Assembly (NCBI GenBank): GCA_021162685.1
Contig: JAGGYF010000002.1
Location: 1 to 54,401, forward strand
Length of the DNA: 54,401 nucleotides
Direction of reading: 5' to 3'
Source: Candidatus Iainarchaeum sp.
Lineage (GTDB): Archaea; B1Sed10-29; WALL01
Under the pieces are notes generated by a model that was not told the origin of the DNA, ran no database searches, and saw only the letters and a program-made list of their open reading frames with translations. Positions 25,164-51,264 of this stretch are shown here, piece by piece. A program made the translations under genes and the position numbers. Positions within the stretch are counted from its first letter, which is position 1, and each line of letters starts with the position of its first letter.

Positions 25164-25262
25164 CTAGCATTCCATTATTAAAACCATACTATAATCATCC
25201 AGCATTTTCACAGTTTCTGTTATTGTTTTGCATCCCTTCTTTTTTGCGACCCCCTTTGGTAT
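25164..25262 (-). repeat. Left direct repeat: degenerate copy of the 3' end of gene 32054..32458
   Basis: 25166-25249 matches 32056-32139 at 78/84 nt; after a 15-nt gap CCCCCTTTGGTAT matches again. Encodes IPKGVAKKKGCKTITETVKMLDDYSMVLIMEC*. Confidence 0.9.
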
Positions 25263-25291
25263 GCTCTTCAATCTTTTTTGTTTCAAACAAA

Positions 25292-27472: not shown

Positions 27473-27578
27473 GTAACACAATAAGTTGGGAGTGACCTGC
27501 TCGTACGGCTACAGAGCCTGCGCCCCCAGAATAGGACACACAGGTCGTTTCCTCGGAAATTTGCGGAAATGATAAGCT

Positions 27579-28540: not shown

Positions 28541-28555
28541 ATAACATGAATATGC
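28531..28555. promoter_or_regulatory. Palindromic operator overlapping the MNT start codon
   Basis: Perfect 10-bp inverted repeat GCATATTCAT-ataac-ATGAATATGC next to a TATA-like TATATAAA. Confidence 0.65.
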
Positions 28556-28563
28556 TATTCATA

Positions 28564-29493: not shown

Positions 29494-29515
29494 TTACTCT
29501 CCATTCTTTTTCATT

Positions 29516-30651: not shown

Positions 30652-30841
30652 ATTATAACAGAGCTGGCATTTATTGGTTTGCTTTTTCAACCACATGGTT
30701 GGTTATACAAACCATAGAATTGGGGGCTCTGCATTTGAAACTAGTAAGCCACAGAAGGAACAAGTCGCACAGTTTTAGGACACTGCCTTTGTCATTTTTT
30801 CTCCTTGATTTGTTTGTAGGTTATTGGTGAATGAACAACCA

Positions 30842-31474: not shown

Positions 31475-32003
31475 GTAATCTCCTCACAAATTCCTTTGCA
31501 TACCACTCTCTCATGTTCCATAGGTCCGCGAATATCAGGGGGTCTGTTACCTCAAATTCTTTTCTCAACACAAATAGGTTTGATGGCCCTCTTCTCTCTG
31601 GGAACCTTCTCTTTATCTCTTCCAATGACTCCTCATCTGCGTATACATACACCTCTGAATAATCAGCAGGTACATCCCTGTACTTGAATTTATAGGCAGT
31701 ATATCCTGTGAATTCAACACCCGCTGGCATACTCTTTTCTATCTCTGCTACTGGCATGTTGACTCTGGTTTTGTATATAACATCCTTGTATAGGTTCCTC
31801 TTATTCGCAACATACATCAATATCTTTTCAGCATCTATTACTCTAACACCCCTCTTTGTTACCTCAATAGCCCCCATGCTTTCAAGTGTTTTTACCGTAT
31901 TGTTCACAGTACTCAAAGAAACCTTTAGCATTTCTGCAATCCTCTTCTGTGTTATTTCTCTCATTTTGAGCAATAGAATTCCGATGGCTACAGCCTTCTT
32001 CAT
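31455..32003 (-). CDS. wHTH transcriptional regulator (AbiEi/type IV antitoxin-like)
   Basis: TQKRIAEMLKVSLSTVNNTVKTLESMG HTH; C-terminal FTGYTAY...DPLIFADLW; overlaps the downstream NTase. Confidence 0.72.
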   Translation of the reverse strand: MKKAVAIGILLLKMREITQKRIAEMLKVSLSTVNNTVKTLESMGAIEVTKRGVRVIDAEKILMYVANKRNLYKDVIYKTRVNMPVAEIEKSMPAGVEFTGYTAYKFKYRDVPADYSEVYVYADEESLEEIKRRFPERRGPSNLFVLRKEFEVTDPLIFADLWNMREWYAKEFVRRLRDRILE

Positions 32004-32053: not shown

Positions 32054-32458
32054 TCAGCATTCCATTGTCAAAACCATACTATAATCATCCAGTATCTTCA
32101 CACTCTCTGTTATTGTTTTGCATCCCTTCTTTTTTGCGATAACAGTTACTTCCTCCCCCTTTGGTATCTCAAACGTGGCTCTACTATTACTTGTCATCTT
32201 TGTTATGCTCTCTCCATTCCATTCTGCTGTTACTCTGATATCATCTGCACCTTTCACATTTACTATAAGTGTGAACCTCTGCACAGGCAGCATCATATAC
32301 ACTGCAAGAGCCAAGAGGATAACTAATATACCCAATGTAATGCTCTTCACAGGTACTCCCTTTTCTTCAAGCTCCTCTTTTTTATCCAATACCCAGTATA
32401 CAGGTATCCCTTTTTCATCTAGTGCATCCATCAGATCCCAGATATCCATATCACTCAC
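32054..32458 (-). CDS. Mini-paralogue of the giant surface proteins: leader, TM and one beta-sandwich domain
   Basis: LMDALDEKGIPVYWVLD...LEEKGVP, then TM, then a CarboxypepD_reg-like domain (ATFEIPKGEEVTVIAKKKGC). Confidence 0.82.
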   Translation of the reverse strand: MSDMDIWDLMDALDEKGIPVYWVLDKKEELEEKGVPVKSITLGILVILLALAVYMMLPVQRFTLIVNVKGADDIRVTAEWNGESITKMTSNSRATFEIPKGEEVTVIAKKKGCKTITESVKILDDYSMVLTMEC

Positions 32459-32655
32459 GCAAACAAAAGATATGCAGCAATCAATGCAACCACAGCCAAT
32501 AGGACTCTGTTTTTTGTGTAGTACCTAGCCACAACAAGCAGCAACCCTAGTATAATAAATATCTTGAGGAGGATAGCCAACTCCCCACACTGCGGACATG
32601 CTACTTCAACAACATTGTGGAGGGGGTTTGGGAGGTTCATGTTGGACAACAGCAT
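32455..32655 (-). CDS. Small membrane protein, family A-like
   Basis: ACPQC...LLKIFII...ALIAAYLLF resembles 23927..24298; start may be 32640. Confidence 0.68.
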   Translation of the reverse strand: MLLSNMNLPNPLHNVVEVACPQCGELAILLKIFIILGLLLVVARYYTKNRVLLAVVALIAAYLLFA

Positions 32656-32664
32656 GTTCTTCTA

Positions 32665-35600
32665 CTATGTTACTTGTCCTGCTCCTCCTGTTTGGATGAT
32701 CCATTTTCCACTGCTACATACATATTTCCCACATTGTTTGCCATTGTTATAACTATTACAATACGCCACTGCACCTTTTCCTTCTGTTCCGTATCCATAG
32801 TCAACACAGCACTTGGTTGGGTCTCCACTGACTAACTCCCCAACATTTGTACATGTCTCAGCAGGTAGAGGATAACAGCAATAAGGTTTGTCACCACTGC
32901 AATCACCCGCAACATCCTTTTCGCACTCGTCTTTGTATTTTACTATTATTCCATTTATTGTTGACACCTTTCCTTCCCAATCTGTTGTATCTATATCCCT
33001 ACATTCATGGTAAACAAATCCATCTGGTTGTAGTATAGCTTTCTTCTCTTCGGCGTATTCCTCACATGTTTGTTTCGTCCCACTTGTCCCTTGATACACC
33101 ACTTCATCAGAGAAATCACCACAACCTACATTGTTGCATGCCTTCACTTTATAGGTATACGTTTTTGCTGGATCACTGAATATATCAACTGACCTAGCAG
33201 TACCTGTTGATGCTACTTGGCCGAAGTTATTGTTCCCATCCTTATCTGGTTTTCTATACACTTTATAATCAAAAGCACAGTCCACAGGACCCCATGTTAA
33301 AACAACGCGTTCTTCTCCCTGCGAATCCTTCTCTACGGAGAAGCTTATGCTCCCTACCTTCTTTGGTACACTTTCACATTGCGACCCTCCTGATCCTCCT
33401 CTTTGCTGTCCTCCCTGTCCTTGCGGTTCGTACCTACACACAAACACATCCTTTTTGCTTGCTGTTTTTTTCGGTACTCTCTCTTCTAGGCTCTTCTGTT
33501 TTATCTGTCCTGGTCCATCTGTTAACCTTATATATGCCTCTTGTCCATCGTGTATATGATCTTTCCAATAGCGTACAAACCCTCTCTGTGGATTTGTTCT
33601 TGTTCCCTCCTTCGCTTGTATAATAGCACTATCATCGTATGAAGAATATCCAGCATCTACACCCCACATCCAGCAATCGCTACAGTACCCTGTACTTGGA
33701 TTATCATGCTTTGTCCTGTCAAATGCAACATACCAGTTATTTCTTGTGTACGCTCCTGTATCATAGAATCTAAATTTGTTCTCACCGGTTACTAACCAGT
33801 CCTTTGGTATATCAAATGATACCCATCTTGGCGTTCTATCGTAGCCAAATACTGTACACCAGTGGAATGTTATATTTTGATCTGGGTTATCATTCACGAC
33901 GAGATAATTCACATCCTCATAAGGTGCTCTTCCCTTATCTTCTATCTTTCCTTTATTTTTTATAACTTGATTTATGTCCTCAGTGGAATAATAGTCAATA
34001 CCGCTCACATTTAACTCACATACGCTATTGTCAGGGCAAATTCCTCCACTACTTTTACTTTTACAGCAACCTTTTGCATTAGCATAAGATTTACCCATCC
34101 ACTTCCAATGTTTCATATCCTTATAACAACGGAATCTTCCACTTATTACTGGCTCTCCCTGTACACATTTCCCATAAACCCAAAGCGCCGCACTGTCTCC
34201 TGTTATCTTATCCGTGTCTACATACAACCATTTGTTCAGTCCATCGTTTAAGTCATTTCCACCAAGCCATCTGGGGGTGGCAAGATCCTTCGGGTTATCA
34301 TTCATAAATATGTTCGCATACAGCGGAGAGCATTTAATTCCTTGTACACCACTGCCCATTAGAACAGCATGTGTGGCAGTATATGGTACTGCTCCGGTAA
34401 GTTCGAGTGTTTTCTCCTGGTTTGCATCAATCCATCCAGTTGAGACTGCATATAACATCTGGCCTTTGTTTGTTACGTTCTCGCAGCTTCCTTCTCCAGT
34501 ATAGAATGCAATTACTCCTCTTCCTCCACTGGCTCCACCATTCTTTATCTTTAAGCTTACATCCAGAAGTTCTGAATGGCCTTTTACAGAAGCCTGCTCT
34601 ATGTCAAGGTCAGCCATTGTTGTTGCATAGATCATCTTGTCATTTGGGTCACTCTTCATGCCATCATTGTCTATAACAGTAAGCTCTGCTTTAAATGTGC
34701 CTCTACTAGGAATGGTGTATTGCGTTTGTTCTGATTCGCTTTCTGTGGTTGTAACTTCTGTATCCAGGTCAATGTAGTCAATGAAGATCGTGTTGTTTGT
34801 TGTTATTCCAATGTGGTGTTCCCCGTCTGCAAGTGCAACAGGCAACTTACCAAATTCTATGGTTTGCCACTCGTTACTTTTTGTCACAGTCTTATTTGCA
34901 ACTTCTTGCCCATCAACATTCACTTTGAGTAATGTTGGTCCTGATAATTCTTTTACCTTCATTGACATAGATGGTTTGGGGTTGCCAGTAGTTATTATCT
35001 TATAAGTAACACCTATGGTTCCAATCATAGTAACTTCATCAAAGTATACACTTCCAGTTACTGGATTATGTGTGTCAGTTTGCTCACCCCAATCTGGAGA
35101 ACCTCCTTCTAAGGTATCATCAAAGATTATACTGCGGAACTTCAGTGGCCTTTCAACTATTCCATCTCCTCCCCAGTGTCCAGCATTTCCTCCACCTGGA
35201 TTTGTCCCATCAAGTGGGAACTCGACCCACTTCCAACCAGTCCAATCAATTTTTAGTGATGGCTGCCATATCTCTCCATTGGCATCTACATATCTAATCC
35301 TGAGCATGTTATCTTTATGATCTGCTTTAAACCAGAAACCAATTCTAGTTGCAGCATCAGGGATAGGTGTGCTCAATGTATCTACTATCTCAAGGAATTC
35401 ATTTGCTTTGTGGCTAAACTCATAATCTGTTTTGAACACGTATCTTCCTTGTATTGATCCTGATTGTACAGCATCAGAGCTAACAGTTGTGCTTGTACAT
35501 CCTGTGTTACCAGAATTACAATCTATCTCATATGTTCTCCAGCCATCGGTGTTACCATCCTCAAAGTCATCTATCAAAGCATTACTTGAAAGTCTTATTT

Positions 35601-38600
35601 TGAGTTTTCCGCTTGCTGCATTGTCTCCAATTATCTTCGCACTTCCTCTCACATCATACTCCTCTGCCTCAATTCTTGTTGTCTGTGATATATTCCATAT
35701 ATACTTTGTTATGGTTCCATCTGGGTCATAGCTATCTGAGGCATCCAATGTTACTGTTTGTCCTGCTTGTGTTACTAGGTCTAGGCCAGCATCTGCAACA
35801 GGCTTTACGCCAACTGTTTCAGTAGTTATGTTGAATACTTGTTCTTTGTTTTCGGAGATATCTGTACTGTTATTATATGTCCAGTATCTTACCAATTCTG
35901 AAGCCAACGCTTGTCTGTACACATTAAGCTCTTCTGGATGGACATTGTAATACCTATCAGTGTAAACCAATCCAATCTCTATATCCACGCCAATTGCACC
36001 AGGTCCTTTTTTTAGTGTGTAGTAACCGAATACTCCTTTACTCTTATCAATGGAATCCGTTATGTAGTTGTATTTATCTGCAACCAACTCCTCTATGTAG
36101 TAATCCCTGTATTTTATACCAAAGCCTCTCTCGTCATAGTTCTGTGACCCATCTGAAACAATATCTTCAGAATAGCCAAAGATATCCCTTGAATCCACAT
36201 TTATGAATCCTTTTACTTTGGCTGCATCTATTGCATTTATGAATGGTGTTATGTCATATCCTTCATCCTGTTTGAATGCATAGTAGTTCACGTAATCTCC
36301 AAGTTCTGCTCTCATGTCCTTGTCAAGGTTCATTGCACCTATGACAAATGAGTAATTGCCTTCATCGCACCATGAAAGACATCTATTTGTGGATGACACA
36401 CTTAGGACACGTTTATCTGTAGGCGATCTCCTCAGAACGTCTCTATCTGTAGATGGCTTTATTGGAAGAATTACTGGAGCACTTCCGTCTGCAAGTGATA
36501 TACTCCTGTCTGTAGATGGCTCTATTACAACATCTTCATTGTTTGGCTCAAATTTGACTGTTACAATACCACAACCAATGTCCGTTCCTCTTACCCATAG
36601 CTCTTTGTTGGCAGTGTTTTCAAACTCTCCTATTGGGTATATAGCGGAGAAGCCTGCGAATCCAAGTTCTTGTCTGATCTTTTCCATTGTTGTCGCTGTT
36701 ATCTTCTCGTTTCCTACTGCATATCTATACTCTGTGTTTGGACCTGCGTTCAGTGCATCCTTCAACACTGCCATTGTGAATTGCTCTGCGTCGCATACCC
36801 TTACAACACCGTCTTCAATAGAGCATGGTGCTTCTACTCCTCTATCTATGTCTTCAGGGGCATTTCTGTATCTGTATACCTCATATTCACCAGGCGTAGT
36901 GACTTTCTCAGCAGCACCTGGGCAATCCAGCTCAAAGAAGAATGCCCTTCTGAACTCTGGGCTTGTGAAGTCAAACCATAGTGATGGTTTATAGTATCCA
37001 GAGCATTTCTCCATATCTGGTGCTCCCTTTATTACAATTTCTGCGTATGGTGCAGAACTAACATCTGCTGGTTTTCCTGGGATCTCCCATTCTGTTGCTC
37101 CTTCCTCTATTGGAATCTCTCTCCCGAATTCATTGTATATTGCTTTAACATTGATGTCAATGCCATAGTTCCTTACAACCCAGGATGGCGAGAAGTACGG
37201 CTTTTCAAATGTTACTGGCTCTGGCCAGTAGTTGTAAACCTTTATTGTCTGATTCATTTGTGGGTGCTCTTCATTCCCGTAAGCTTCTGTGAAGTTCCAT
37301 GTAACTGGTTCTGTTATACCATCAAATAGTATGCCGCCCACACTGAAGTTCCTTGTAAATGGTCCAAACTCATATCCTATTGCCTTTACTGTTATTGTTC
37401 CTGGCTTCAATGCTCCTCCCTCTTTTGTCGGCAGCACAAACTCAAAGTATGGCTGTTCTGCAAAGTTCTTCAGCCACATCTCGCATGACTCATTGGTGCA
37501 TGTTGACACATATCCTGCTGGTATGTCATCAGAATCAAAGTTCAGTGCATCTCCTGAGATGTATACAACATTATTCCTTCCCTTCTCGTCATGCACTGCT
37601 CCGTACCCCATTACTTGACCAGTTGGATGGTCTGCATCCCTCTTTATAATGGACAATACCAGTACCTTAGTTGTTGTATCCAATGCCTCATTGCCTTCGC
37701 TGTCAAATCCTTGTAGTATCATATCATAGTCAACCCAGCCGTGCTTGAATGTTCCACCCTCCCATGTGGTTGTTGGTTCATCTTCTCCGTAGTCCCACAT
37801 GTATGCTTCCATTGTGCTTGTCTGCTTTGTAAAGTCACTATCTCCTGTAACAAATATGCCTTTTCCAACAGCTGCTACCCATTTCTTTCCATTGGCAGGT
37901 ATTGTCAGGGCATTCCAGCGCGCTCGGACCATTGTTGGTTCATCGTTTCTCGGAACAGCAGCCAGTGCTTCAGCAGCTTTCATTGGGTCATTTTCTACAA
38001 GTTCTCTAATGTTAGTGGCGTTTTTGAGTTTTCCAAAGTGCGGTCCACTTTCTGATGTATATCCAAGCATCTCAGCAGTTATTGGTGTGTATTCCTCTCC
38101 TGCGTATCCTGTTTCCTCCTCCTCTTGTGGAACAATTTCAAATGTTGCACTCTTACAGTTTGCATGGGAACCGACATCTTGAATAAATCTATTTGGTATC
38201 CTTGAAATAGAGCTTGTGTAGTTGAATAGAGCACATACCCATACTGTTTTTGTACCTGCGCCCAATTTATTTACTGAATAGTTTAATGTTCCGAAATCTG
38301 TTGTTCTTACAGCAGAGTCCTTATCAATCTTCGCCATACCCAGCCATTGTGGTGGTCCATAAGGAGCACCTTGTTCATCAAGCACTATTGAGTAAACAGA
38401 GACGTTCTGTTTTGTATACTTCTCTGTGTTGTAGTTCTTTATTACTGCCTCAATGCTTACGGTGTCGCCTATACCATATGTAAATGTATCTGTTTGCTCC
38501 CCTTTACTGTTTCTCAGTGTTATGCTGTCAACACCAATGTCTATTATATCAGAGATCCATTCGCAGTCTGGGTCCATTCTACATAGTCTCTCATCTGTTT

Positions 38601-41600: not shown

Positions 41601-43560
41601 ATGTCTCGTGTGTTTGTGGGTCAAAATAAGGAAGATGCAGGCTTATTGTAGCAACAAAATCCTGCCCCTGCACAACACTGCTTGGTGCGCTCAGCGTTGC
41701 TGTTTGCGTCATTTTTGTTAGGTCCAAATCAAATGCATCATCCCCAATCATGTCATTTCTCACTGTAAATGGTGCAGATACTAGTGGTCCGTACTGTGTT
41801 CCATCATCAGCAGTGTACTGGCCCTTGAGATAGATCTCAGAGTTCTTTGGCACTTGGAATTCTATCTGTCTGTTCTCTCCACTTGTGCCTGAGAATATTA
41901 GTTCTGGGAAGTTCTTTGCATACGTCACATCATAAACATCTACTTGTACGCCTTTCATCCTGTTCTTTGTGCCATCAACAACAACATTTGTTTTAACTTG
42001 GACTGTTTTGTATTCTGGAGCAATCTCCATCCTCACGTTTTCAGTTTCTCCTGGTTCTAATGTAATTACATCACTTGATTGGCCATCCTCTGTCTGTATA
42101 TAGTATTTGCCTACTGGGATTCTTCCGAACTGGCATTGCCCAGAGGAAGGGGTAACACAGCTGCTGTATTCCTTTCCATCAGATCCCATCAAGCTGAGTT
42201 TTATTCCTCCTAATGGCTCTCCTATCCCCTCTTTGTTATATGCAGTAACAACTATGAACCCAGAGTTTGAGTCATCAAGTGGCGTAAGCTTAAACTCAGC
42301 AGGCTCTCCTCCAACAATTGTATCAGATACCATCATATAATTCGGCTTTCTTATCTCAATATCATACGTTTTCTTCTCAAGTACTGTTGTCGCTGTTCCA
42401 TCACTTCCTGTTAGCATATACTGAACAATTGCTCCATCATCTATTATTGAGACCTCAGCATTTGGTATGCGCGTATTATCCTTCTCATTCTCAACAGTAA
42501 TTGTGGTTGGAAAACCTTCCTGCATAACAATGGTTATGGTCTTGTCAGATGTTGCAATCTGCTTCACATTACTGATATATGTTCTATACTTATTGTACTG
42601 GTTGTCCTCTGCTTTTATGTAAAATTCAACATTCTTTGGGATAACTAGCCTTGCCACACCATCCAGGTCAGTCTGCGTTGTTGTCACAACATTTGAATAC
42701 TCCAAACTTAGGAGTTCTCCTGTCCTTCTAACAGCAGAAACCTGTATGCCTGGTAGTGGCTCTCCTCCTGCTGTGACAATAACATTGAATGTGTATACAA
42801 CATCTGCCTGAGGTGTTACATACTCATCTGGCTTCGGTTGAACACTTTTCAGTGTTATGCTTCCTGTGTCATGTATCTCCTGCAATGCCTGCTCCATTGT
42901 TGCTGTATACGTATAATCATTACAATCTATTACAACAATCTGGCCTCTTTCTGGGCAGTTCTGGTCTGAGTATGACATATACAACTTGTTTCCGCTTATC
43001 TGCCATCCCATATCAACGGGGTTGTATGCACTATCATAAGTTTTTAGCACACACCCCCTTGGAAAGCCACCATCTGGCGTTGCTAAAACTGCTTGGTCCA
43101 AATCCTTTGCTAACTCAATGCATCCGGCTACGGGTGGGGCTTTTTTACATATTATATCAATCTCAATACTGGATGCACCAGTGAGCGTGACCAGCTCCTG
43201 CGCCTTCTCACATGCTTCCTTCATCACCTCTATAGTAAATTCTTTCCCAACAGGAAGTTCAAATGTTGCAACACCTTCCTCATCTGTCTCTACTTTTGCG
43301 AGTTCTTCTCCATCAAATAACGCAGCGACCTGTGCATTCTCTATGGCCTCTCCGTTGCTCACTACCTTTACAGTTAGTGTTGCCTTTCCTGCCGGAAGGA
43401 GCATGAACCCAACTAGTGCCAGAATAATAACTAAAACACCAATAACAACGGGCATGCTCGGGATACCAGCATTTTCAAGTGGGTCAATTATTGCCCTTAT
43501 AGGAATGCCCTTTGCGTCAAGGGCATCAATTAGTTTATACCATTTGTCTTCAAGCCCCAT
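32665..43560 (-). CDS. Giant membrane-anchored surface protein, 3631 aa (carboxypeptidase-regulatory-like repeats, CARDB-like, Cys-rich repeats, PKD, CBM-like, FN3)
   Basis: Uninterrupted ORF with GAGGTG RBS; N-terminal leader plus TM; TDxxGxA repeats; PNIQITQI...VNATVRNAG; CGNGxC repeats; PVADAG...DASDSYDPDG; LTWGPV...YTYKVKACN. Domain names come from motif recognition only. Confidence 0.88.
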   Translation of the reverse strand: MGLEDKWYKLIDALDAKGIPIRAIIDPLENAGIPSMPVVIGVLVIILALVGFMLLPAGKATLTVKVVSNGEAIENAQVAALFDGEELAKVETDEEGVATFELPVGKEFTIEVMKEACEKAQELVTLTGASSIEIDIICKKAPPVAGCIELAKDLDQAVLATPDGGFPRGCVLKTYDSAYNPVDMGWQISGNKLYMSYSDQNCPERGQIVVIDCNDYTYTATMEQALQEIHDTGSITLKSVQPKPDEYVTPQADVVYTFNVIVTAGGEPLPGIQVSAVRRTGELLSLEYSNVVTTTQTDLDGVARLVIPKNVEFYIKAEDNQYNKYRTYISNVKQIATSDKTITIVMQEGFPTTITVENEKDNTRIPNAEVSIIDDGAIVQYMLTGSDGTATTVLEKKTYDIEIRKPNYMMVSDTIVGGEPAEFKLTPLDDSNSGFIVVTAYNKEGIGEPLGGIKLSLMGSDGKEYSSCVTPSSGQCQFGRIPVGKYYIQTEDGQSSDVITLEPGETENVRMEIAPEYKTVQVKTNVVVDGTKNRMKGVQVDVYDVTYAKNFPELIFSGTSGENRQIEFQVPKNSEIYLKGQYTADDGTQYGPLVSAPFTVRNDMIGDDAFDLDLTKMTQTATLSAPSSVVQGQDFVATISLHLPYFDPQTHETFRSAEVEFWVGDQGSVSDIEASPIIIKSVRPKDYSLEDPTVSGPLLATEFSYSTPLSYEEAGSISAAKYFKIDITKYNKPVIFNIPIPLHVRTAVLTPDTELHYRAKWVTNDGKVFTTQPDNAWVHVPITIDTTQTQGWHYIDTHPDFYLYSAWLSTDKAGQHVVDGGTFADGSTFYLQIRAKAKRDASSYGIEITSSKGYSYPITYSGAIVRTDGSVQKIEEPESIADTTRIDPVADNPKLANFYKLEADDELQLAVKMKVYKEGEPTTTLRPEYNDWLVLFNDQSGFVLPYTVLEIPESQQTPISNVLGRVYTASYMFEEGRYFDHTKYTVPSITVPEQGEIKGRRFATVVEFENNNDFDKQINFALVDEHAVEQPWAKFYELTLPVEIDSANTFTVQKQGIVSGSIMLDDDASPDDYEMQIWKYNETSEMYDINANAYYKGDFTIANHRFAFSWIPEETGEYRIEVAVRLYDEEKNQSLNDEEKNQSLNYSDYQIAHVVALPNIQITQITVSPMTPHEGDTIYVNATVRNAGTETVPILDYDSDGKNELEPIVTITAIPTSLVSFPDEWDYLPPLNPGESTVVGLVLNNTNIGYVELTVCANYYLWSNGHLNFSGATIIDDNVEGTNDMDCKSIILNIEAVEKAEGSCQDCPVSDCSELVQPCNYNGICETNDRWADEDANNCPSDCPCDNDGVCDPGEDKRWCPNDCHLGDGICDLATEAGTTDCYCGDGVCDPATENATTCPSDCGCGNGICQGTIGENYTSCPQDCAGTCDKNGTCEWWAGESYTACTYIDETAGVVTGNVTDNCTCGNGLCEPNGNPPENYSTCPQDCSPCNGDGVCDAGESWFGCMYRDENGSIQNTYDCTCGDYCCNASAGETIDNCYKDCGFGDNSCLSSLGENWHTGLSNPCMEFDESLCGAGQSRILGECVCNYNGTCEPSAGEDHFNCPGDCNGPDCSGGNANEQVCESVEGCEWAIVPGFTTTRACFPDIAGDCKSQTDERLCRMDPDCEWISDIIDIGVDSITLRNSKGEQTDTFTYGIGDTVSIEAVIKNYNTEKYTKQNVSVYSIVLDEQGAPYGPPQWLGMAKIDKDSAVRTTDFGTLNYSVNKLGAGTKTVWVCALFNYTSSISRIPNRFIQDVGSHANCKSATFEIVPQEEEETGYAGEEYTPITAEMLGYTSESGPHFGKLKNATNIRELVENDPMKAAEALAAVPRNDEPTMVRARWNALTIPANGKKWVAAVGKGIFVTGDSDFTKQTSTMEAYMWDYGEDEPTTTWEGGTFKHGWVDYDMILQGFDSEGNEALDTTTKVLVLSIIKRDADHPTGQVMGYGAVHDEKGRNNVVYISGDALNFDSDDIPAGYVSTCTNESCEMWLKNFAEQPYFEFVLPTKEGGALKPGTITVKAIGYEFGPFTRNFSVGGILFDGITEPVTWNFTEAYGNEEHPQMNQTIKVYNYWPEPVTFEKPYFSPSWVVRNYGIDINVKAIYNEFGREIPIEEGATEWEIPGKPADVSSAPYAEIVIKGAPDMEKCSGYYKPSLWFDFTSPEFRRAFFFELDCPGAAEKVTTPGEYEVYRYRNAPEDIDRGVEAPCSIEDGVVRVCDAEQFTMAVLKDALNAGPNTEYRYAVGNEKITATTMEKIRQELGFAGFSAIYPIGEFENTANKELWVRGTDIGCGIVTVKFEPNNEDVVIEPSTDRSISLADGSAPVILPIKPSTDRDVLRRSPTDKRVLSVSSTNRCLSWCDEGNYSFVIGAMNLDKDMRAELGDYVNYYAFKQDEGYDITPFINAIDAAKVKGFINVDSRDIFGYSEDIVSDGSQNYDERGFGIKYRDYYIEELVADKYNYITDSIDKSKGVFGYYTLKKGPGAIGVDIEIGLVYTDRYYNVHPEELNVYRQALASELVRYWTYNNSTDISENKEQVFNITTETVGVKPVADAGLDLVTQAGQTVTLDASDSYDPDGTITKYIWNISQTTRIEAEEYDVRGSAKIIGDNAASGKLKIRLSSNALIDDFEDGNTDGWRTYEIDCNSGNTGCTSTTVSSDAVQSGSIQGRYVFKTDYEFSHKANEFLEIVDTLSTPIPDAATRIGFWFKADHKDNMLRIRYVDANGEIWQPSLKIDWTGWKWVEFPLDGTNPGGGNAGHWGGDGIVERPLKFRSIIFDDTLEGGSPDWGEQTDTHNPVTGSVYFDEVTMIGTIGVTYKIITTGNPKPSMSMKVKELSGPTLLKVNVDGQEVANKTVTKSNEWQTIEFGKLPVALADGEHHIGITTNNTIFIDYIDLDTEVTTTESESEQTQYTIPSRGTFKAELTVIDNDGMKSDPNDKMIYATTMADLDIEQASVKGHSELLDVSLKIKNGGASGGRGVIAFYTGEGSCENVTNKGQMLYAVSTGWIDANQEKTLELTGAVPYTATHAVLMGSGVQGIKCSPLYANIFMNDNPKDLATPRWLGGNDLNDGLNKWLYVDTDKITGDSAALWVYGKCVQGEPVISGRFRCYKDMKHWKWMGKSYANAKGCCKSKSSGGICPDNSVCELNVSGIDYYSTEDINQVIKNKGKIEDKGRAPYEDVNYLVVNDNPDQNITFHWCTVFGYDRTPRWVSFDIPKDWLVTGENKFRFYDTGAYTRNNWYVAFDRTKHDNPSTGYCSDCWMWGVDAGYSSYDDSAIIQAKEGTRTNPQRGFVRYWKDHIHDGQEAYIRLTDGPGQIKQKSLEERVPKKTASKKDVFVCRYEPQGQGGQQRGGSGGSQCESVPKKVGSISFSVEKDSQGEERVVLTWGPVDCAFDYKVYRKPDKDGNNNFGQVASTGTARSVDIFSDPAKTYTYKVKACNNVGCGDFSDEVVYQGTSGTKQTCEEYAEEKKAILQPDGFVYHECRDIDTTDWEGKVSTINGIIVKYKDECEKDVAGDCSGDKPYCCYPLPAETCTNVGELVSGDPTKCCVDYGYGTEGKGAVAYCNSYNNGKQCGKYVCSSGKWIIQTGGAGQVT
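40127..40180. repeat. Perfect 27-bp tandem duplication (in frame)
   Basis: TTGAGAGACTGGTTCTTTTCCTCATCA x2, giving DEEKNQSLN-DEEKNQSLN. Confidence 0.95.
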
Positions 43561-43630
43561 CTACACACCTCATGCATAGAATTTGCATTGCTACAAATTT
43601 AGGGCGCTTTTATATATATACTTAATGGGT

Positions 43631-46600
43631 TTATTCCAATGTCATTTCTACCTCCATTTTGTCTAGATAATCTGCTTTCGGCCCGACCCACTCACCTTGA
43701 GTTGTCGATGACTCCTGGCATAAGATCTTCTTTATATTCCAATTCCCTGATTTCTCTTTACATTTGGTTTCTTGTGATTTCCAATTACTTACAGAATCCC
43801 ATATAGTGTATAACTCATCTGTAGACGGTGTGATCTTTATATAGAATTTATCCTCTTCTTCTAGCAATTCCTCTCCTCCTTTCCTGAGACAGACTTTCAT
43901 ATATTTTACTGTTAATGCTTCTCCAAATTCAATTGATCTCCATTGGTTACATGTTCCTTCGTTCACTACAGTAATATTGTGTCGCGAATAGCAACCAGAT
44001 TCTGTACTGCTTCCTCCATTTTCCCCTCCCCAAGCCTTTGTGATTGTGTACCATCTACAGTCATCACCAGATGACATAAATCCTTCAATTCCACAATGTT
44101 GCTGATCATTTAATGGACAACAGTCTTTTAATATGCTCGAAACACATATATCAGTAGTTTCCTTACTAGCACTGCAATCTCTCCACTTATTCTGATTATA
44201 CTTTGGTGCTCCGCATACATACATTTTCTTCTTGTCAATTGTCAGCGTCATAGTTGCTGTGTTCCCTACCTTGTCTTCAGCTGTTATTGTGTAGGTATGT
44301 TCCTGGTCGTCGTCTGCAGTGATTTCGATGATCCTTTTCCAACCTTTGTCGTTTCCAGAGAATATAGGCTGTTCATCAAGGTCATGTATTTTTTTTCTCT
44401 CTCCGTTCACTATGACTGCAGAGCCACCGGACACCCATCTTGGACCATCAACTTTAACACCTACAATCATTGTTTCTGAACACTCTTCTTTGTCATCGAA
44501 TTGCATCGGGGGAAGGAATGTGTGACTAGTCCCTAAGTTGTCCAATATCCCGGCGTAGACATCAATGCCCCATATAGTCTGTATGCTAAAGGTATTATCA
44601 GAATCTTCAACATAGTCTTGCTCTATTTTGTTCAAGCCGCCTTTGTATGCAATGTACCTGCCAGAGTCATCTGCGTGGTCCCAAGCATAGCAGCCTGCAT
44701 CACCATATCCTTGTGAGTAATCCATACTTTTCCCTTCCTGCTGGAACGCCAGTTCAAGTACAGGCGGAGTGGTATCTACAACTATATATATGATCCTAGG
44801 TGTTGTCTGTATATTTCCGTTCTCATCAATGGCAGAACAACTTATTTGAAGGTAGTTGAGGCCCTCTGCTACAAGGAACTCATTAGCTGATACCATGGTG
44901 TGGCACTCATATTCCTGTGCGTATGGGTTTCCTTCTATTGGCATGCAGTCTAGTGGTTCTGTGCTTACCTTCCCGTTTGCATCTGTATTTTGTGTGTTAA
45001 CTGCTTGTATTGTGCACCCACTTATTTTATTTGGTGATGTAACATATATTGGAATAACCACATCTGGTGAGTTTACATAGAATGGTCCTGATGTATCTGT
45101 ACACATCATACCTCCTGTTTCCTCTACTACGTGATGCGTTTCTTCAGGATTAAATGGTGCACACACACTTCCGTCTCCTAATATATCGCCTGTTCGTATT
45201 CCTTTGAACTCTCCTAGTATGTAGTTCCACTCTATCATGGGCTGGCCTTCTTCAAGCCTTACCACAGCAATTTTATCTGATGTACCAGTGTTTCCATTTG
45301 TATCTGTACAGTTCACTTTTATCATATTTGCTCCATCTATGTCACAATCATAGTTGTTGTAAACCTGTTTATTCGGCATGAGGTTTATACCAGAGCATTT
45401 AAATTCATATCTTATTGTTCCGTCAGGCATTGTATAGTTGTTTGTTTGGGTGCAAGTGTACTCATTTAAGTCAGTTGGGCAAACCCTGTACGCAGTACAT
45501 GATTCAACACCAAACCTATCTGTTGCATTAAACGAGATTGTTACAGTTGTTTCATTTGTTGCGCCAGGATATACAATGGAGAGGACTGTTGGAGGCGTTG
45601 CATCAAGCTTTATGGATTTTTCAGCTCTTGGACTCCAGATCCCACCTATGTTCTTGCATGTTGCTTTTATTTTGTATACGCCGTCATCACTACCGCCTAG
45701 GGTCCAGTTTGCGATCCTCAATGTGTTTCCTTCCCAGTCCGATGTTTCTTTGTTATATTCATTCACACGTTCAAAACTCCAATATGAACCTTCGTCTTCT
45801 GCATTCCATACCTTACACGCGATTGCGTCATCAGATGTTGTTATCCTTAGCTGAACATTTCTGTTCCCTGTGACATTTGCATCATATATGGGTGATTCCA
45901 ATAGGTTTCCGTCACGGTCATAGATTGCATCTATTACAAATGATTCTATTGTGGGTATTTCCCAGCCCTCTGCTTCTATGCATTCGCCCAGATCAAATAC
46001 CTGCTCCCCATTGCCTTTGATCTCAATATTATTTTCTTTTCCAGTCCAGAATGCAACAAGATTCGTTATAAAGCATCTTCTCTGGAAATCCAGGTTGTCT
46101 GCATTGGAATATACAATGCCTATCTGGAGCAGCCCATAATCTGCATTATATCTATAATACCCAGCAACGTTTGGCAATTGATTTGATACTGCCTTATCCC
46201 TGACCCATCTCAGTTTTTGGTCCGTTTCTTCCTTCATATCTTCTATAGTATATTCTCTATAATCTATCACAAATGGCGCGTATTGGTTATCGCTTATATC
46301 ACTGTCCTTTGCACCGCCAACAAAGTTATCCCAAGGCATAAACCCACTGACTTCTGTTTTCAGTGATGACAACGGCTCATTTGTTAGGGAACTGGAGAAT
46401 GAGAAGTACTTCACGATATCCATTGTAGAGGGTTCCCCTTTGAGGTCGTCATCATAGTTCATCAGTCCAAGTATGTACGGGCCGTACTGTGGGTTGCACC
46501 ATGGTACGTTCCTGTCAATCTCTGGCTCCAAAACAATGACATCGTTCTGCCTCTTTTCCAGCTTTAATTTTACTAATCCACATGTTATATCTTTTGTGAG

Positions 46601-49600
46601 TACTACGTTGTTTTGCCCAGCTTCCTCTTCTGTTGAAACCACACTAATGCTCTCTTCACTTCCCTCACCAAGCACCTTTGCTGTTACAATGTCATTGCCA
46701 AATGCGTAGTATCTCACATCCTCAATTCTATGTGATTGCTGCAGGTCTGAAACAGCAAGCCCTATGGCTTCTGAGAGCTGCTCTGCGTCACATAGGTAAA
46801 CAGTATCATCGGAAACAGCACATGAGTCCATTGTTGTTTTGTAATCCCTCTTATCCTCTCTGAATACATTAAATGCAGTGCCTAGGTCTGGTTTTTCTGG
46901 CTCAGGGCCAAGCGCAAATGAACAATTAAATATCATCTCATATTCTGCGCTCCTCTCTATGTGTGATTCCCTTGTATCTGTTGTCACAACTAATCTGTTT
47001 TTACTTTCATATAGGTTGCATTCTACTCCTGGGGGTATTGCAGTTATTGAGAGTATTGCCTTTCCTCTTGGAGGTATTTTTACAGAAATCTTCCCATCTT
47101 TATCCTTCTCCTTGCTTGTTATTTCAAAACCATTTGCATCATACACAACAACCTTTCTGCTCAATCCAAATTCTTCGTAATACTCCCACGTGCCAGTCTC
47201 TAGTTCTAATGATAACTCTTCCTCCCAGTTGTTTGTCACTGTTGCATAGTCAAATGTTATATTCTGCCTTTTGTCATCAAGTACAAATTTCATAGAATAT
47301 GGCAATGGCTCAAAGTGCGTTCCGTGTATCTCATAGCTCCTTTCAAGTGTTCCAATAGATTTGCTTTGTGCTCTTACCTTCAAGTATCCCCAATCCAATA
47401 CCAAGGGTTGGGACTGCGCTTCTGTTGTGAAGTATGTGCCTTCTACTCCTTCATACAGAGGAGCATATATTGTTTGACCTGGTGCCTCAAGAACAACAAC
47501 ATTTTTTATGCCATCTGTTTCTATCCTGCTAGTTATTGGTACACCTACACTACTGCTCAGTGTTTTCTCTAAGATGTCTATTCTTACGTCCTTCACCTCA
47601 GTGTTCAGTGTTTGTTCGGATAGTGCATTTCCTTCGTCATCTATTGGTGTGATCCTGAACACAAAATCAGCAGCACCAACATTGATTGTCTTGAACGGCT
47701 GTTGCATTGGCAATCCTTTCTTCCATAAATATATAACCACAGATGATGTATGCAGGTCTTTTCCTTTACCTGTTATCTCAATTACTTTTTTCTTTCCAGC
47801 ACCTATTGTCACTTCAGATGGGTATTCCAACTCCTCAATACCAGGTGCCTGAACAAACAATGATGCCTCTTGGTCTATCTCCCCCTTATTCTTCAGTGTG
47901 ATCTCTATCTTCATATCTCTTGCGCCTTTTGTCAGGCTCATGACAGGAAGCATCTCACTTTCATTGAATACTGCCCATGAACAACCCTCTGTATAAGGTG
48001 CATAATGGCATAGGTAAACCATTGGCTTAACCCTGGCAACAACATTTGGTATGCTTGTTTGTTCCTCTATTGGTGCTTCTTCTATATGGAATTTTAGTGT
48101 GTTTTTTAGATCATTGAATATGCTTATCTCAGCAAGGGATGTTGGTTCTCTTGCTTTTAGTGTTATTACTAAATGAACAATATCATCTGTGTCAACCTTA
48201 TACAGTTCTGGTGCCTCTGTTCCAGGTCTTATACTTACTGGCAACTCATTTGTATACTCTGTTTCGTAGATATTCGTTCTGTTCCCATTAATCCTCTCAA
48301 TCCATCCTGAATAATACATAGGCACAACATATTTCTGCCCAGTTACTGGTGGGAATGAATCAATTGCAAATGCATAGTTTTGGCTTTCATGCGATGCAAT
48401 TGCTTTTATGTGCAGGAAGATTGCAGAACCCTGTGTTAACGTAACCTCATTTGTTCCAGACTCAGCATTTGGGTCCTCTGAGAAGTATGCCTTGTATGCG
48501 TTGAAATCCTGAGTTTCAATAATATTCCAATCAGCATCACCATCTACTATATCTATTGTTGTCTCTTTCCACCCACTATCTATCTGTGTTCCATCCTCTT
48601 CTTCCCATACTGCTCTGTAGTGTACTGTTGTGTTCCCTTTCGCAAGTTTCCTAGCAAACATCGGGATTGTTATGGTATAACTGCCAGCATCATAATCGCT
48701 GATTACAAACTTAACGTATTTTGATGTTGTATCTATACTTCCTCTTGTTGGATATGAATCATAACTATATGAGTCAAATGCATATGGCTTTACAATGGGC
48801 TTTGGCTGCAAGCTGAATATGTAAGGGTCTATCCCTCCAATGACAACAGGCGTTCTTAAAGGATTCTCCTTCGTTCCAGGGTCCCCAACCCATAGCTCAA
48901 CAGTTATTGTTTTGTATGGCTCTCTCTTCTTTGGGTCAGCATATGGCAATCCAATATCAAGCTTTGTTTCATACATCTTCTCCTTTACAAATTCTAGTTT
49001 TGGATTTTGTGGCACAGTAAATCCAATTTCATGCTTTACTTCTCTTAGGTTAATTTCCGTTTCAATGTTATTTGTGACATCAAACACGTTTGTGTATGTT
49101 GGTCCATACGTCTTTCCTTCCTCGTCTGTATACTTTGCTTTTAGGAATACCTTTTGTCCTCTGTACGCGTTGAAAACAACTTTCCTATTATCTCCGCTTC
49201 TCTGATTATCTATCTCCTCAATGTCACCATATGTTGTTTCGTATAGCCAAACCCTTACATCCTTTTTTGGTATGCCCTCAACCTTTGTAAGTACTTCTAT
49301 GGTTACTTCAAGTGGTACAATCTTTAGGACCTGTCTTACTGGGGTACCTGGCTCAACATCAAATGTTTCAAATTCGTCATAATCTGCTTTCCCAGGTGCT
49401 AATGCTCTGAAGTAGTATGTTCCAGCAAGAACCTTTTTGAATTGACACAAACCAGTTGCAGGCGTCACGCATTCCCTGTATACTATGTCATCTAGTGTCA
49501 TCAATTGCACTCTAACACCCTGCATGCCCTCCTCAATACCTTTTGCATTTACTGCCTTAACCTCAACAGTTGCAGAATTGCTCTCATCAATCTTCTGCAT

Positions 49601-51259
49601 CTTTATCTCAGTATCAATCCCTCCTACAATTCTCTCTTGTGTGGGTATGTAATCATCATGCACAAGTTGTAATGTGTATTCAGCATCCTTTTGTAATACA
49701 AGTGTTACTTTTCCAGCAGATGTTGTTCCAGAATCCACAACTATGCCGTCTTCTATGGCAATTACTCTCACTCTGCTAATACCTATATTCGTAGAATTAT
49801 CCTTCACAACGATTGTGGTTGGGAAGCCTTCCTGCATGACCAGGTTTATGTCCTGTTGTGATAGTTGTGTCCTAAGTGGGCCAGTGGCATCTCTAAATCT
49901 TCCCAATGGGTCTTCTGCTCTTATATAATACCTCTGCCCCTCTGGAATATCTAGATACGCCTTTCCGTCTTCATCTGTTGTTGCCGGTTCAATCCCTTCT
50001 ATAGCTTTTCCCTGGGAGTCTACAACAGTTACAAGTATGCCCTCTAATGGATTCCCTTGACCGTCCTTTATTGTGACATATGTTGTATACGTCTTTGTTT
50101 CAATGGGTGGCTGAGGAGGGCAATTTGGCACATCTTGGGGACATGTATCGCACGTTTCTCCTATCTCCTGTATGTTATTTCCACAAACTGGTTGCTGCGA
50201 ACACTTAACATCCTGTGGGCAATTATCGCATGTCTCTCCTAGTTCAGCAATGCCATTCCCACAAACACCTGTTGTATTGCAACTGCTTCCAACATCCTCT
50301 GGGCAATTATCACAGTTCTCTCCAGGTTCAACTTCACCATTCCCACAAACAGCATTTTCTGGCAATCTCATATCCCTGCCGCAGACATCTGCATCCTTGC
50401 TATCTGGTACACCGTCTCCATCTATATCATCATCTTCAATATCTGGTATACCGTCATTATCATTGTCCATATCTTCTGAGTCCGGTACGCCGTCATTATC
50501 ACAGTCCATCATCCCTATATCTGATGTTTTCCTTGCAGGCAATGTTATTTGTCCTGTTCTATCAAGTTCCTCTTTAAGCTCTGAAACAGTCTCTGTTTTC
50601 CCATATCCTACGCATTGTATATCAATATCATAATCATCCAATAAGCAGGTATTCTCATCCAAAAATAATGTGTTCCCATCTATGCCCCATGTTATATCTA
50701 CTGCTTTTCCATCCTTATCAAATGCTCTTATCACACATCCCTCAAGTGTTCCATAGTCCTCTGCAACAAGTATCGCAGTGTAATACTCCTGCGCTATTGT
50801 GCTACATGCTTTTACTCCTAGTAAGCCTTCACATTCCATCTCTACTTCTACTTCTGTTCCTGCATCAATTGTTTTTCTCAATGTTTTGCATCCAGCATAC
50901 TTCACGACAAGGTCAATGCTTCCGAACCCCTCAAATGTTACTTTGCCTTCTTCATCTGTTTTTAATTCAAGTTCACTTCCATCTGGTAGTTTGGCAATAA
51001 CATCAGCATCAACGAGTGTGGTGTTCCCAAATTTCACAAGAACTACTGTTTCTGCGGGCTGCGGCTTTGCTCCTGTAATAGACATAGCAATGACCAAAAG
51101 CAATATGATAAAAATACCAACAACGAGTGGGAAGCTTGGCAACCCCAACCCTTCTATAGCATCTACTACCTTGTAAACAGGAATGCCCTTTGCATCAAGA
51201 GCATCAAGCACTCCGTAATACTTATCTTCTATTGCTTTATATGTTCCTTTTAGGTTCAT
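43631..51259 (-). CDS. Giant membrane-anchored surface protein, ~2542 aa, paralogue of 32665..43560
   Basis: GGTGA RBS before ATG 51259; same leader (VLDALDAKGIPVYKVVD); Asp-rich DxDxDG repeats; three CGNG...CPxDV repeats; shared scaffold motifs; Ig-like C-terminal domains. Confidence 0.88.
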   Translation of the reverse strand: MNLKGTYKAIEDKYYGVLDALDAKGIPVYKVVDAIEGLGLPSFPLVVGIFIILLLVIAMSITGAKPQPAETVVLVKFGNTTLVDADVIAKLPDGSELELKTDEEGKVTFEGFGSIDLVVKYAGCKTLRKTIDAGTEVEVEMECEGLLGVKACSTIAQEYYTAILVAEDYGTLEGCVIRAFDKDGKAVDITWGIDGNTLFLDENTCLLDDYDIDIQCVGYGKTETVSELKEELDRTGQITLPARKTSDIGMMDCDNDGVPDSEDMDNDNDGIPDIEDDDIDGDGVPDSKDADVCGRDMRLPENAVCGNGEVEPGENCDNCPEDVGSSCNTTGVCGNGIAELGETCDNCPQDVKCSQQPVCGNNIQEIGETCDTCPQDVPNCPPQPPIETKTYTTYVTIKDGQGNPLEGILVTVVDSQGKAIEGIEPATTDEDGKAYLDIPEGQRYYIRAEDPLGRFRDATGPLRTQLSQQDINLVMQEGFPTTIVVKDNSTNIGISRVRVIAIEDGIVVDSGTTSAGKVTLVLQKDAEYTLQLVHDDYIPTQERIVGGIDTEIKMQKIDESNSATVEVKAVNAKGIEEGMQGVRVQLMTLDDIVYRECVTPATGLCQFKKVLAGTYYFRALAPGKADYDEFETFDVEPGTPVRQVLKIVPLEVTIEVLTKVEGIPKKDVRVWLYETTYGDIEEIDNQRSGDNRKVVFNAYRGQKVFLKAKYTDEEGKTYGPTYTNVFDVTNNIETEINLREVKHEIGFTVPQNPKLEFVKEKMYETKLDIGLPYADPKKREPYKTITVELWVGDPGTKENPLRTPVVIGGIDPYIFSLQPKPIVKPYAFDSYSYDSYPTRGSIDTTSKYVKFVISDYDAGSYTITIPMFARKLAKGNTTVHYRAVWEEEDGTQIDSGWKETTIDIVDGDADWNIIETQDFNAYKAYFSEDPNAESGTNEVTLTQGSAIFLHIKAIASHESQNYAFAIDSFPPVTGQKYVVPMYYSGWIERINGNRTNIYETEYTNELPVSIRPGTEAPELYKVDTDDIVHLVITLKAREPTSLAEISIFNDLKNTLKFHIEEAPIEEQTSIPNVVARVKPMVYLCHYAPYTEGCSWAVFNESEMLPVMSLTKGARDMKIEITLKNKGEIDQEASLFVQAPGIEELEYPSEVTIGAGKKKVIEITGKGKDLHTSSVVIYLWKKGLPMQQPFKTINVGAADFVFRITPIDDEGNALSEQTLNTEVKDVRIDILEKTLSSSVGVPITSRIETDGIKNVVVLEAPGQTIYAPLYEGVEGTYFTTEAQSQPLVLDWGYLKVRAQSKSIGTLERSYEIHGTHFEPLPYSMKFVLDDKRQNITFDYATVTNNWEEELSLELETGTWEYYEEFGLSRKVVVYDANGFEITSKEKDKDGKISVKIPPRGKAILSITAIPPGVECNLYESKNRLVVTTDTRESHIERSAEYEMIFNCSFALGPEPEKPDLGTAFNVFREDKRDYKTTMDSCAVSDDTVYLCDAEQLSEAIGLAVSDLQQSHRIEDVRYYAFGNDIVTAKVLGEGSEESISVVSTEEEAGQNNVVLTKDITCGLVKLKLEKRQNDVIVLEPEIDRNVPWCNPQYGPYILGLMNYDDDLKGEPSTMDIVKYFSFSSSLTNEPLSSLKTEVSGFMPWDNFVGGAKDSDISDNQYAPFVIDYREYTIEDMKEETDQKLRWVRDKAVSNQLPNVAGYYRYNADYGLLQIGIVYSNADNLDFQRRCFITNLVAFWTGKENNIEIKGNGEQVFDLGECIEAEGWEIPTIESFVIDAIYDRDGNLLESPIYDANVTGNRNVQLRITTSDDAIACKVWNAEDEGSYWSFERVNEYNKETSDWEGNTLRIANWTLGGSDDGVYKIKATCKNIGGIWSPRAEKSIKLDATPPTVLSIVYPGATNETTVTISFNATDRFGVESCTAYRVCPTDLNEYTCTQTNNYTMPDGTIRYEFKCSGINLMPNKQVYNNYDCDIDGANMIKVNCTDTNGNTGTSDKIAVVRLEEGQPMIEWNYILGEFKGIRTGDILGDGSVCAPFNPEETHHVVEETGGMMCTDTSGPFYVNSPDVVIPIYVTSPNKISGCTIQAVNTQNTDANGKVSTEPLDCMPIEGNPYAQEYECHTMVSANEFLVAEGLNYLQISCSAIDENGNIQTTPRIIYIVVDTTPPVLELAFQQEGKSMDYSQGYGDAGCYAWDHADDSGRYIAYKGGLNKIEQDYVEDSDNTFSIQTIWGIDVYAGILDNLGTSHTFLPPMQFDDKEECSETMIVGVKVDGPRWVSGGSAVIVNGERKKIHDLDEQPIFSGNDKGWKRIIEITADDDQEHTYTITAEDKVGNTATMTLTIDKKKMYVCGAPKYNQNKWRDCSASKETTDICVSSILKDCCPLNDQQHCGIEGFMSSGDDCRWYTITKAWGGENGGSSTESGCYSRHNITVVNEGTCNQWRSIEFGEALTVKYMKVCLRKGGEELLEEEDKFYIKITPSTDELYTIWDSVSNWKSQETKCKEKSGNWNIKKILCQESSTTQGEWVGPKADYLDKMEVEMTLE

Positions 51260-51264
51260 GGATT

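Follow-up and report, generated by a model that had tools for sequence, protein, structure and literature searches.

The window analysed here is a stretch of 54,401 nucleotides from Candidatus Iainarchaeum sp., contig C25 of a 1.11 Mb genome in 45 contigs that is estimated to be 98% complete. Four consecutive genes on its minus strand encode the 3′ part of a giant surface protein, two further giants of 2545 and 3631 amino acids and a small protein of 134 amino acids. The last three open with the same short leader, in which a 14-residue unit is duplicated ahead of a hydrophobic helix. This leader is described by no database family, is a 40-residue module new to annotation, and is a hallmark of two phyla of DPANN archaea. 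Together, the leader, the helix and the beta-sandwich behind them define a large unannotated family of giant surface proteins in Micrarchaeota-type and Iainarchaeum-type DPANN archaea. The tightest conserved neighbour of the leader genes in the two phyla is fam11, the gene for a 174-residue protein of the exosortase/archaeosortase family that lies near the leader arrays. With a probability of about one half, judged from sequences and predicted structure, the leader would be a recognition tag, i.e., the cytoplasmic part of an uncleaved signal anchor that is read by machinery encoded at the same locus. The leader, with its linkage to a sortase-like enzyme and a pilus-type motor, suggests a dedicated sorting or docking route.

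A duplicated leader on giant surface proteins

An earlier note on this stretch had described an internally duplicated leader at the start of three genes, and the N-termini of the 3631-, 2542/2545- and 134-residue proteins read as claimed. Searched in six frames with the expression D.[LIVM][DE].[KR]G[LIVM]P, the whole 1.11 Mb yields five matches, all at the start of open reading frames (ORFs). The two additional copies open giants that are cut by contig ends (contigs C39 and C40), and a profile search of the genome recovers the same five copies. Their mean pairwise identity is 0.57 over the leader, 0.44 over the hydrophobic segment and 0.27 over the next domain, so that the leader is indeed far better conserved than the adjacent sequence, about twofold relative to the next domain. 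Over 83 members of the family, the corresponding values are 0.48, 0.23 and 0.22. The two helix-GxP units are a true duplication of 14 residues: in a column-profile score, 14 is the only offset between 3 and 24 that scores positive (+0.68 per column; -0.45 to -1.85 for the others), and the score of unit 1 (positions 17-30) against unit 2 (positions 31-44) is 23.8, which 0 of 100,000 shuffles reach (null, -15 +/- 7). In register, the units follow the pattern h-h-D-x-h-[DE]-x-x-G-I-P-x-[YF]-x, and the family logo (n=156) is nearly invariant at Y7, E11, D12, K13, [YW]14, [YF]15, D19, L21, G25, P27, Y29, D33, E36, P41, F43 and P44. The leader is also acidic, as had been noted, with a mean of 8.1 D+E vs 5.0 K+R over about 47 residues.

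No meaningful match to the leader was found in Pfam (leader alone, E up to 10), NCBIfam, PDB sequences or the ESM Atlas, which places it outside the known Pfam families and, likewise, those of NCBIfam. A word-based search with the 65-residue leader returned 12 longer proteins, with the motif at the extreme N-terminus in all of them. An alignment of 14 sequences covering leader and helix (A1) served as a profile against 1.84 billion representative proteins, giving 1083 clusters at E <= 1e-3, of which 652 reach E <= 1e-10. The expectation that such matches would sit at the N-terminus of large proteins is borne out: in the best 150 of the 1083 clusters, the leader occurs once in each, starting at residues 1-33 (at 63 in one), mostly on proteins of 1500-3600 amino acids. 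A length of at least 1500 amino acids is reached by 81 of the 156 family proteins collected; the short ones, for the most part, have the appearance of contig-end fragments. In public records, the proteins that bear a name are called 'carboxypeptidase regulatory-like domain-containing protein' or 'hypothetical protein'.

In the window's phylum (Iainarchaeum-type), 24 of 31 genomes carry the leader, among them all 11 with a completeness of 90% or more. In a second phylum (Micrarchaeota-type, that of genome G051), it occurs in 206 of 215, including 58 of 58 high-quality ones, with 1-9 copies per genome. Among 30 archaea outside the window's phylum, only G051 matched, which leaves 0 of 29 for archaea outside both phyla. 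The ORFs behind the matches are mostly 1500-3400 amino acids long and often form tandem arrays of 2-5. Genomes of about 1 Mb devote several percent of their length to two to nine giant surface proteins, which probably mediate host contact. One short, almost invariant module without a name in the databases is common to all these giants, and a profile of 65 positions retrieves the whole family. The module can decay to one unit, since a giant of genome G008 (G008:C22:69137-77728; loci L027/L028) carries the second unit only (..NGVPVP, then the helix) behind an unrelated N-terminus.

Other identities for the leader were considered and rejected. The C-terminal peptide of FtsZ has the motif D-I-P-x-F, but the three FtsZ tails of this genome (...DLDIESIL, ...EIGIYSLI and ...IDIDVEYVE) are unlike the G-I-P-x-[YF] units, which speaks against mimicry. 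By eye, the acidic residues are not spaced as in an EF-hand-like calcium loop. The Micrarchaeota S-layer protein, in the available part of its description, is a different one: it has a mass of 101 kDa, a PF05123 domain and a predicted signal of the ordinary type (10.1101/2021.04.28.441871).

Predicted fold, membrane anchoring and comparison with known signals

An AlphaFold2 (AF2) model of the leader region, built on an alignment of 83 sequences with a mean predicted local distance difference test (pLDDT) of 90.3, places in order a helix (residues 3-23), K-G-I-P, a second helix (28-36), G-x-G-x-P, a third helix (42-61), a short linker and a beta-sandwich. The first two helices have a pLDDT of 89-95, and the third, read as the membrane helix, ends before a G/S/P linker without packing on the head domain. 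Foldseek, run with the 170-residue model, returned matches to the beta-sandwich only, which resembles CnaB and carboxypeptidase regulatory domains, and none to the leader. This first domain after the helix also matches PF13620 (CarboxypepD_reg; 1e-16 and 4e-12), so that profile and fold agree on a domain of the CarboxypepD_reg/transthyretin-like type. In Pfam and NCBIfam, the domains behind the leaders are exclusively of beta-sandwich or carbohydrate-binding types (CarboxypepD_reg, SpaA, PKD, Big and CBM_11). Helices 1 and 2 are amphipathic; their hydrophobic face is almost invariant, as are D12, Y15, D19 and D33 on the polar face, with over 3.3 bits each. Across the two phyla, the leader hardly varies on its buried face or on its exposed, acidic and aromatic face, whereas the remainder of these proteins diverges freely; we therefore infer that the leader is a recognition tag. 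Its strict N-terminal position and the gene linkage described below argue in the same direction.

The hydrophobic segment has a median length of 23.5 residues, counted from P44 to the first D/E/K/R/N/Q/H, and its N-terminal flank contains more K+R than its C-terminal flank (means of 1.31 vs 0.49), being richer in 66% of the sequences and poorer in 7%. A hydrophobic stretch of transmembrane (TM) length, the N-side excess of K+R and C-terminal domains of extracellular type together point to a signal anchor oriented N-in/C-out, which would keep the leader in the cytoplasm. Among 24 listed proteins of >1500 amino acids, none of the 20 that belong to fam2, the BLAST family of the leader-type giants, ends in a hydrophobic segment, i.e., in a TM segment or a tripartite sorting signal; the other four, assigned to fam14, end in a TM segment and a basic tail. 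The helix of about 20 residues would then be the only membrane anchor of the giants, and it is probably uncleaved. In such an arrangement, the duplicated unit, an amphipathic helix ending in G-I-P, would fold into two short helices at the inner face of the membrane, and the following helix would hold the giant N-in/C-out, with the first beta-sandwich outside. Type II signal-anchor proteins are comparable, as an uncleaved N-terminal helix holds a large extracytoplasmic part while a folded N-domain stays inside. Their N-domains are usually family-specific, whereas the leader is common to dozens of divergent paralogues across phyla. Of the cytoplasmic docking or targeting tag proposed in the earlier note, the cytoplasmic side is suggested by segment length, charge bias and domain types, while docking is supported indirectly, by the invariance of D12, Y15, D19 and D33 and by the linkage to an archaeosortase-family gene and a pilus-type motor.

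The same module might instead serve oligomerisation, the leaders and helices of several paralogues, including the 134-residue protein, bundling into homo- or hetero-oligomers at the base of a multi-chain fibre. The 2-9 paralogues of a genome share only this module, of which the 134-residue protein is the minimal form; helix 1 carries a heptad-like hydrophobic stripe, and small residues line one side of the membrane helix (positions 48 and 55/56). Yet an acidic exposed face, found in every copy, would disfavour self-association without cations, and AF2 places the helices confidently as a monomer. Such bundling is compatible with the other readings, but very unlikely.

In agreement with the earlier note, the leader conforms to none of the Sec, Tat and standard class III types of signal. 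Twin arginines are absent from the three window leaders and from the family logo (n=156), which removes the Tat class. For a Sec signal of class I, the n-region would be acidic and 40 residues long, the hydrophobic stretch is of TM length, and no c-region is conserved. An extended Sec signal would nevertheless account for part of the data: signal peptidase I would remove the hydrophobic segment, the extension would only tune targeting or slow the translocation of very long chains, and the giants would be released or held otherwise. The precedent is the extended signal peptide region (ESPR) of autotransporters and two-partner secretion proteins, which, in the available text of its descriptions, is likewise a conserved N-terminal extension before the hydrophobic export segment of very large surface proteins (PMC2805444, PMC8151025). 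The ESPR belongs to a cleaved Sec signal of diderm bacteria with a charged-hydrophobic-charged-hydrophobic layout, whereas the leader is archaeal and acidic, with a duplicated helix-GIP unit and a single TM-length helix. The two share no sequence similarity, and the leaders do not match the Pfam ESPR family (PF13018) at E up to 10. In support of an extended Sec signal, the leader is confined to very long exported proteins, the G/A/S/P-rich stretch behind the hydrophobic segment could house a small-residue cleavage site, and giants without another anchor make a released fibre conceivable. However, a clear Sec signal of the locus, on the 1550-residue neighbour (...VMAQEN), has a short h-region and an AxA-like site; the 134-residue paralogue bears the leader as well; and invariant exposed residues suggest specific recognition and not mere delay. 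Cleavage by signal peptidase I is therefore considered unlikely.

Class III signals, cut by PibD, EppA or FlaK, share with the leader an N-in/C-out topology, a conserved element before the helix and a type IV pilus-like locus, as far as the available parts of the review describe them (PMC6098224). In contrast, the leader is 4-10 times longer and acidic, and its helix does not extend into the head domain. An A24 peptidase could in principle cut before I-P-S-F-P, so that the giants would be modular pilins within, or on the tip of, the filament of the neighbouring machine. The genome encodes two Peptidase_A24 proteins, the topology is as in a prepilin, and a T2SSE ATPase, a T2SSF-like platform, KGQ/RGQ pilin-like genes and a 700-residue protein with a class III signal of its own all adjoin; in addition, unit 1 contains [KR]G in 101 of 156 sequences. 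The position before the helix fits poorly, being G/A/S in only 87 of 156 sequences, preceded by K or R ([KR][GAS]) in only 40, and N in 53 or deleted in 15. All three variants of this residue coexist in the single genome G051. The leaders measure 37-47 residues, against the short basic leaders of 3-9 residues (KGQ/RGQ/KRG type) on the pilin-like proteins of the locus itself. Pilin helices run on into the head domain, whereas the AF2 helix stops after 20 residues. That the giants are unusual class III substrates is accordingly improbable.

Linkage to an archaeosortase-family gene and a pilus-type motor

Clustering of the neighbours of the arrays of six relatives revealed a recurrent upstream order: pilin-like genes, a 1550-residue protein, a platform protein, an ATPase, the 174-residue fam11 protein, a 700-residue protein and then the giants. 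The ATPase matches T2SSE at 5e-21, with FlaI as its nearest NCBIfam family, and the T2SSF-like platform gives a weak Pfam match (7e-4). The 700-residue protein has a canonical class III signal, MKRG|F, and the 1550-residue protein combines a Sec signal with a C-terminal helix and basic tail. The fam11 protein belongs to the archaeosortase family: it matches PF09721 at 1.4e-6 and TIGR04178 at 40.9 bits, above the cut-off of 23, has archaeosortase B as its nearest subfamily (6e-11), and retains C78, R120/R145 and H140 as invariant residues in 30 sequences from both phyla. Its fold is predicted with a pLDDT of 89.6, and a fold search with this model returned nothing at E <= 0.001. In the genome of the window, fam11, the ATPase, the platform and the protein with the class III signal lie on contig C4, and the latter continues on C39 ahead of a giant; of the locus, the window therefore contains only the distal end.

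Hand comparison of place lists for the window's phylum covered 20 genomes with both genes on one contig, and in 18 of them fam11 precedes a leader gene on the same strand by at most 3.8 kb. In the second phylum, 167 of 215 genomes have a single copy of fam11 at E <= 1e-15. Among its 27 best loci with at least 1.19 kb of downstream flank, 12 have a leader gene 110-681 nt downstream of fam11 on the same strand; in 12 of 30 loci, the 1.5 kb flank beyond fam11 contains the ATPase on the opposite strand, and all three genes are found in 8 of 30. Hand comparison of the best 150 places per list places both genes within 20 kb of each other in about 46 of about 50 one-contig genomes of that phylum. Five near-complete genomes from five of its families have fam11 directly upstream of the main array (three), 11 kb off (one) or unlinked (one), and the platform within 20 kb in three. 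In lineages where fam11 falls below the 1e-15 level, a divergent copy lies beside the leader gene in G260 and another 8.5 kb upstream in G065.

These data are consistent with the reading of the leader as a recognition tag for a conserved partner encoded at the locus, through which the giants would be sorted, positioned or held. Candidate partners would be the upstream archaeosortase-family enzyme and the neighbouring type IV pilus-like ATPase and platform. Several observations weigh against it. In the window's phylum, fam11 is divergently oriented and 6.4 kb away in G015, and in G006 it stands on the opposite strand at a distance of 14 kb. It is unlinked in G087 and G098; no match to it was found in leader-bearing G262, and only a doubtful one (E = 0.004) in G268; and a fam11-like gene occurs without a leader in G045, outside both phyla. 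PolB and methionine aminopeptidase are also kept near the arrays, in the other phylum as well, so that the gene order may in part be inherited synteny. From its helices and charges, the Cys and His of the enzyme would face outward, far from a cytoplasmic leader, and the net acidity of the leader is unusual for the cytoplasmic flank of an anchor.

A more specific proposal is that the leader and helix are the N-terminal counterpart of the C-terminal PGF-, VPXXXP- and PEP-type signals. With the proline motif between them, the two would make up a tripartite signal; the enzyme, possibly with the pilus-type motor, would recognise it and bind to the helix, and the giants would be processed or attached at the outer face and so mounted or released. 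In systems with one enzyme and one target, the sortase-family gene adjoins the target gene, and fam11 co-occurs with and adjoins the leader genes, with the exceptions given above, even as the divergent copy of G260. The enzyme keeps the Cys, Arg and His, the last residues of the leader ahead of the helix read [IV]-P-x-x-P, and the neighbour with a C-terminal helix and basic tail has V-P-I-R-P or I-P-T-R-P in the same place. Known signals of this kind (PGF-CTERM, VPXXXP-CTERM and PEP-CTERM) resemble the leader in having a proline motif before the helix and a cytoplasmic charged region, but, in the part of the literature available, all known substrates bear them at the C-terminus or internally, and the motif lies outside the membrane (PMC6098224). 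In the leader, the charged part is acidic and precedes the helix, and the motif would face the cytoplasm, on the side opposite to the presumed outward position of the enzyme's Cys and His. Moreover, a sortase-type cut of an N-terminal anchor would free the protein and not attach it, some leader genomes have no convincing match to the enzyme, and other proteins with a C-terminal helix and basic tail could be its real substrates. A genome scan for the latter arrangement gave 42 ORFs with no obvious common motif. This N-terminal variant of an archaeosortase signal appears rather unlikely; if true, it would be the first sortase-family pathway to read the N-terminus of its targets.

Two neighbouring proteins deserve separate mention. 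In the pilin cluster, the 1550-residue protein (G000 C36:10044-14624; in relatives, e.g., L029:2060-6769) ends in [VI]-P-x-R-P, a helix and a basic tail; this C-terminus resembles a VPXXXP-CTERM-type signal, and of the proteins considered this one is the most likely ordinary target of the archaeosortase B-like enzyme. The platform proteins (A5, e.g., L029:10956-13055), of 700-800 amino acids, have a conserved lysine-rich stretch in their N-terminal cytoplasmic part, KEH.YVK.CK..HK.FG..AKKE. This basic N-terminus might be a counterpart of the acidic leader, although this is only a thought.

No published description of the leader was found; supplementary tables, which may list genes by locus tag, were outside the search. 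The review of archaeal signals places archaeosortases in a subset of Euryarchaeota, in the text available (PMC6098224). The available text of the Mia14 paper reports four surface proteins that make up 2.5% of the genome, as well as type IV pili loci, and does not mention an N-terminal module (PMC5498576). The words 'archaeosortase', 'ARMAN' and 'Micrarchaeum' do not occur in the accessible portion of a census of archaeal type IV pili (PMC4858521), nor do any of the relevant terms in that of the ARM-1 paper (PMC8784108), and a review of microbial dark matter refers, in the sections at hand, to DPANN pilus islands in general terms only (PMC6393860). The leader is a defined peptide for pull-downs or structural work, and its linkage provides a concrete hypothesis, namely that the giants are tied to a pilus-type motor and an enzyme of the archaeosortase family. 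Micrarchaeota are available in culture, where cleavage, topology and partner are directly accessible. Should the link to the sortase family be functional, it would widen the range of targets that such enzymes recognise.

The array and its surroundings in the window

The features of the array and of the region downstream are listed in Table 1. The 134-residue protein has the most divergent leader, which lacks the first half of helix 1. Small paralogues of 129-137 amino acids also end the arrays of the relatives G002, G004 and G005, and a paralogue of 129-209 amino acids closes the array in genomes of the window's family, as it does in one genome from its order.

Table 1. Leader-bearing genes, their leader and helix segments, and neighbouring features (coordinates in the window)
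Feature	Position	Strand	Remarks
Further giant, C-terminal 1041+ aa	51265..54401	-	start beyond contig end; same BLAST family (fam2)
Giant surface protein, 2545 aa from GTG (2542 aa from ATG at 51259)	43631..51268	-	leader, TM, then CarboxypepD_reg, SpaA and Big-like beta-sandwich domains; C-terminus without hydrophobic tail
Leader of the 2542-aa giant, residues 1-44 from ATG at 51259	51128..51259	-	helix 1, KGIP, helix 2, GLGLPSFP
Hydrophobic segment of the 2542-aa giant, residues 45-62	51074..51127	-	read as membrane helix; AF2 helix 42-61
Giant surface protein, 3631 aa	32665..43560	-	CarboxypepD_reg, PKD and CBM_11-like domains; Cys-rich C-terminus without TM
Leader of the 3631-aa giant, residues 1-37	43450..43560	-	shortened helix 1
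Hydrophobic segment of the 3631-aa giant, residues 38-55	43396..43449	-	
Small paralogue, 134 aa, last gene of the array	32054..32458	-	divergent leader 1-38, TM 39-57, one beta-sandwich ending in Cys
Inserted island, ~7.6 kb, between the small leader gene and the small-membrane-protein block	24449..32003	.	context, outside the module
Downstream block of small membrane proteins	20703..24448	-	three tandem paralogues of 111-129 aa and others

The block of small membrane proteins trails the giant arrays in related genomes of the window's order and gave no family matches; its tandem paralogues each have two N-terminal helices and a P-x-P-A-G-G-like motif. The inserted island is not at this place in the relatives compared. 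It contains two pairs of HEPN and nucleotidyltransferase genes, a DUF6036 nucleotidyltransferase with an HTH gene, a PRiA4_ORF3 gene, an OGG-like glycosylase and an AAA_14/DUF4143 ATPase that spans two ORFs (25292-26191 and 26164-26631) and is probably frameshifted. AAA_14/DUF234 ATPase genes similar to that of the island also lie between giants on C39 and C40. The truncated giants of these two contigs have identical last ~50 residues at the contig ends, where the assembly probably broke in a repeat common to paralogues; leader genes beyond the five copies counted may exist in this genome.

Elsewhere in the window, a family B DNA polymerase of 1182 amino acids (14630-18178, minus strand) contains an intein (Intein_splicing match at residues 559-954); its orthologues in relatives have only 754-807 amino acids and are therefore without it. 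A cytoplasmic protein of 487 amino acids (18694-20157, minus strand), with no Pfam or NCBIfam match, adjoins PolB in all seven genomes compared, the other phylum included. The genome also encodes a PyrB/PyrI pair, which, like the family B polymerase with its intein, marks it as archaeal. Near the start of the window, a 1076-residue protein (876-4106, minus strand) combines fn3 and a MopE-type metal-binding motif with a C-terminal hydrophobic helix and basic tail, and is a candidate classical substrate of the archaeosortase-family enzyme.

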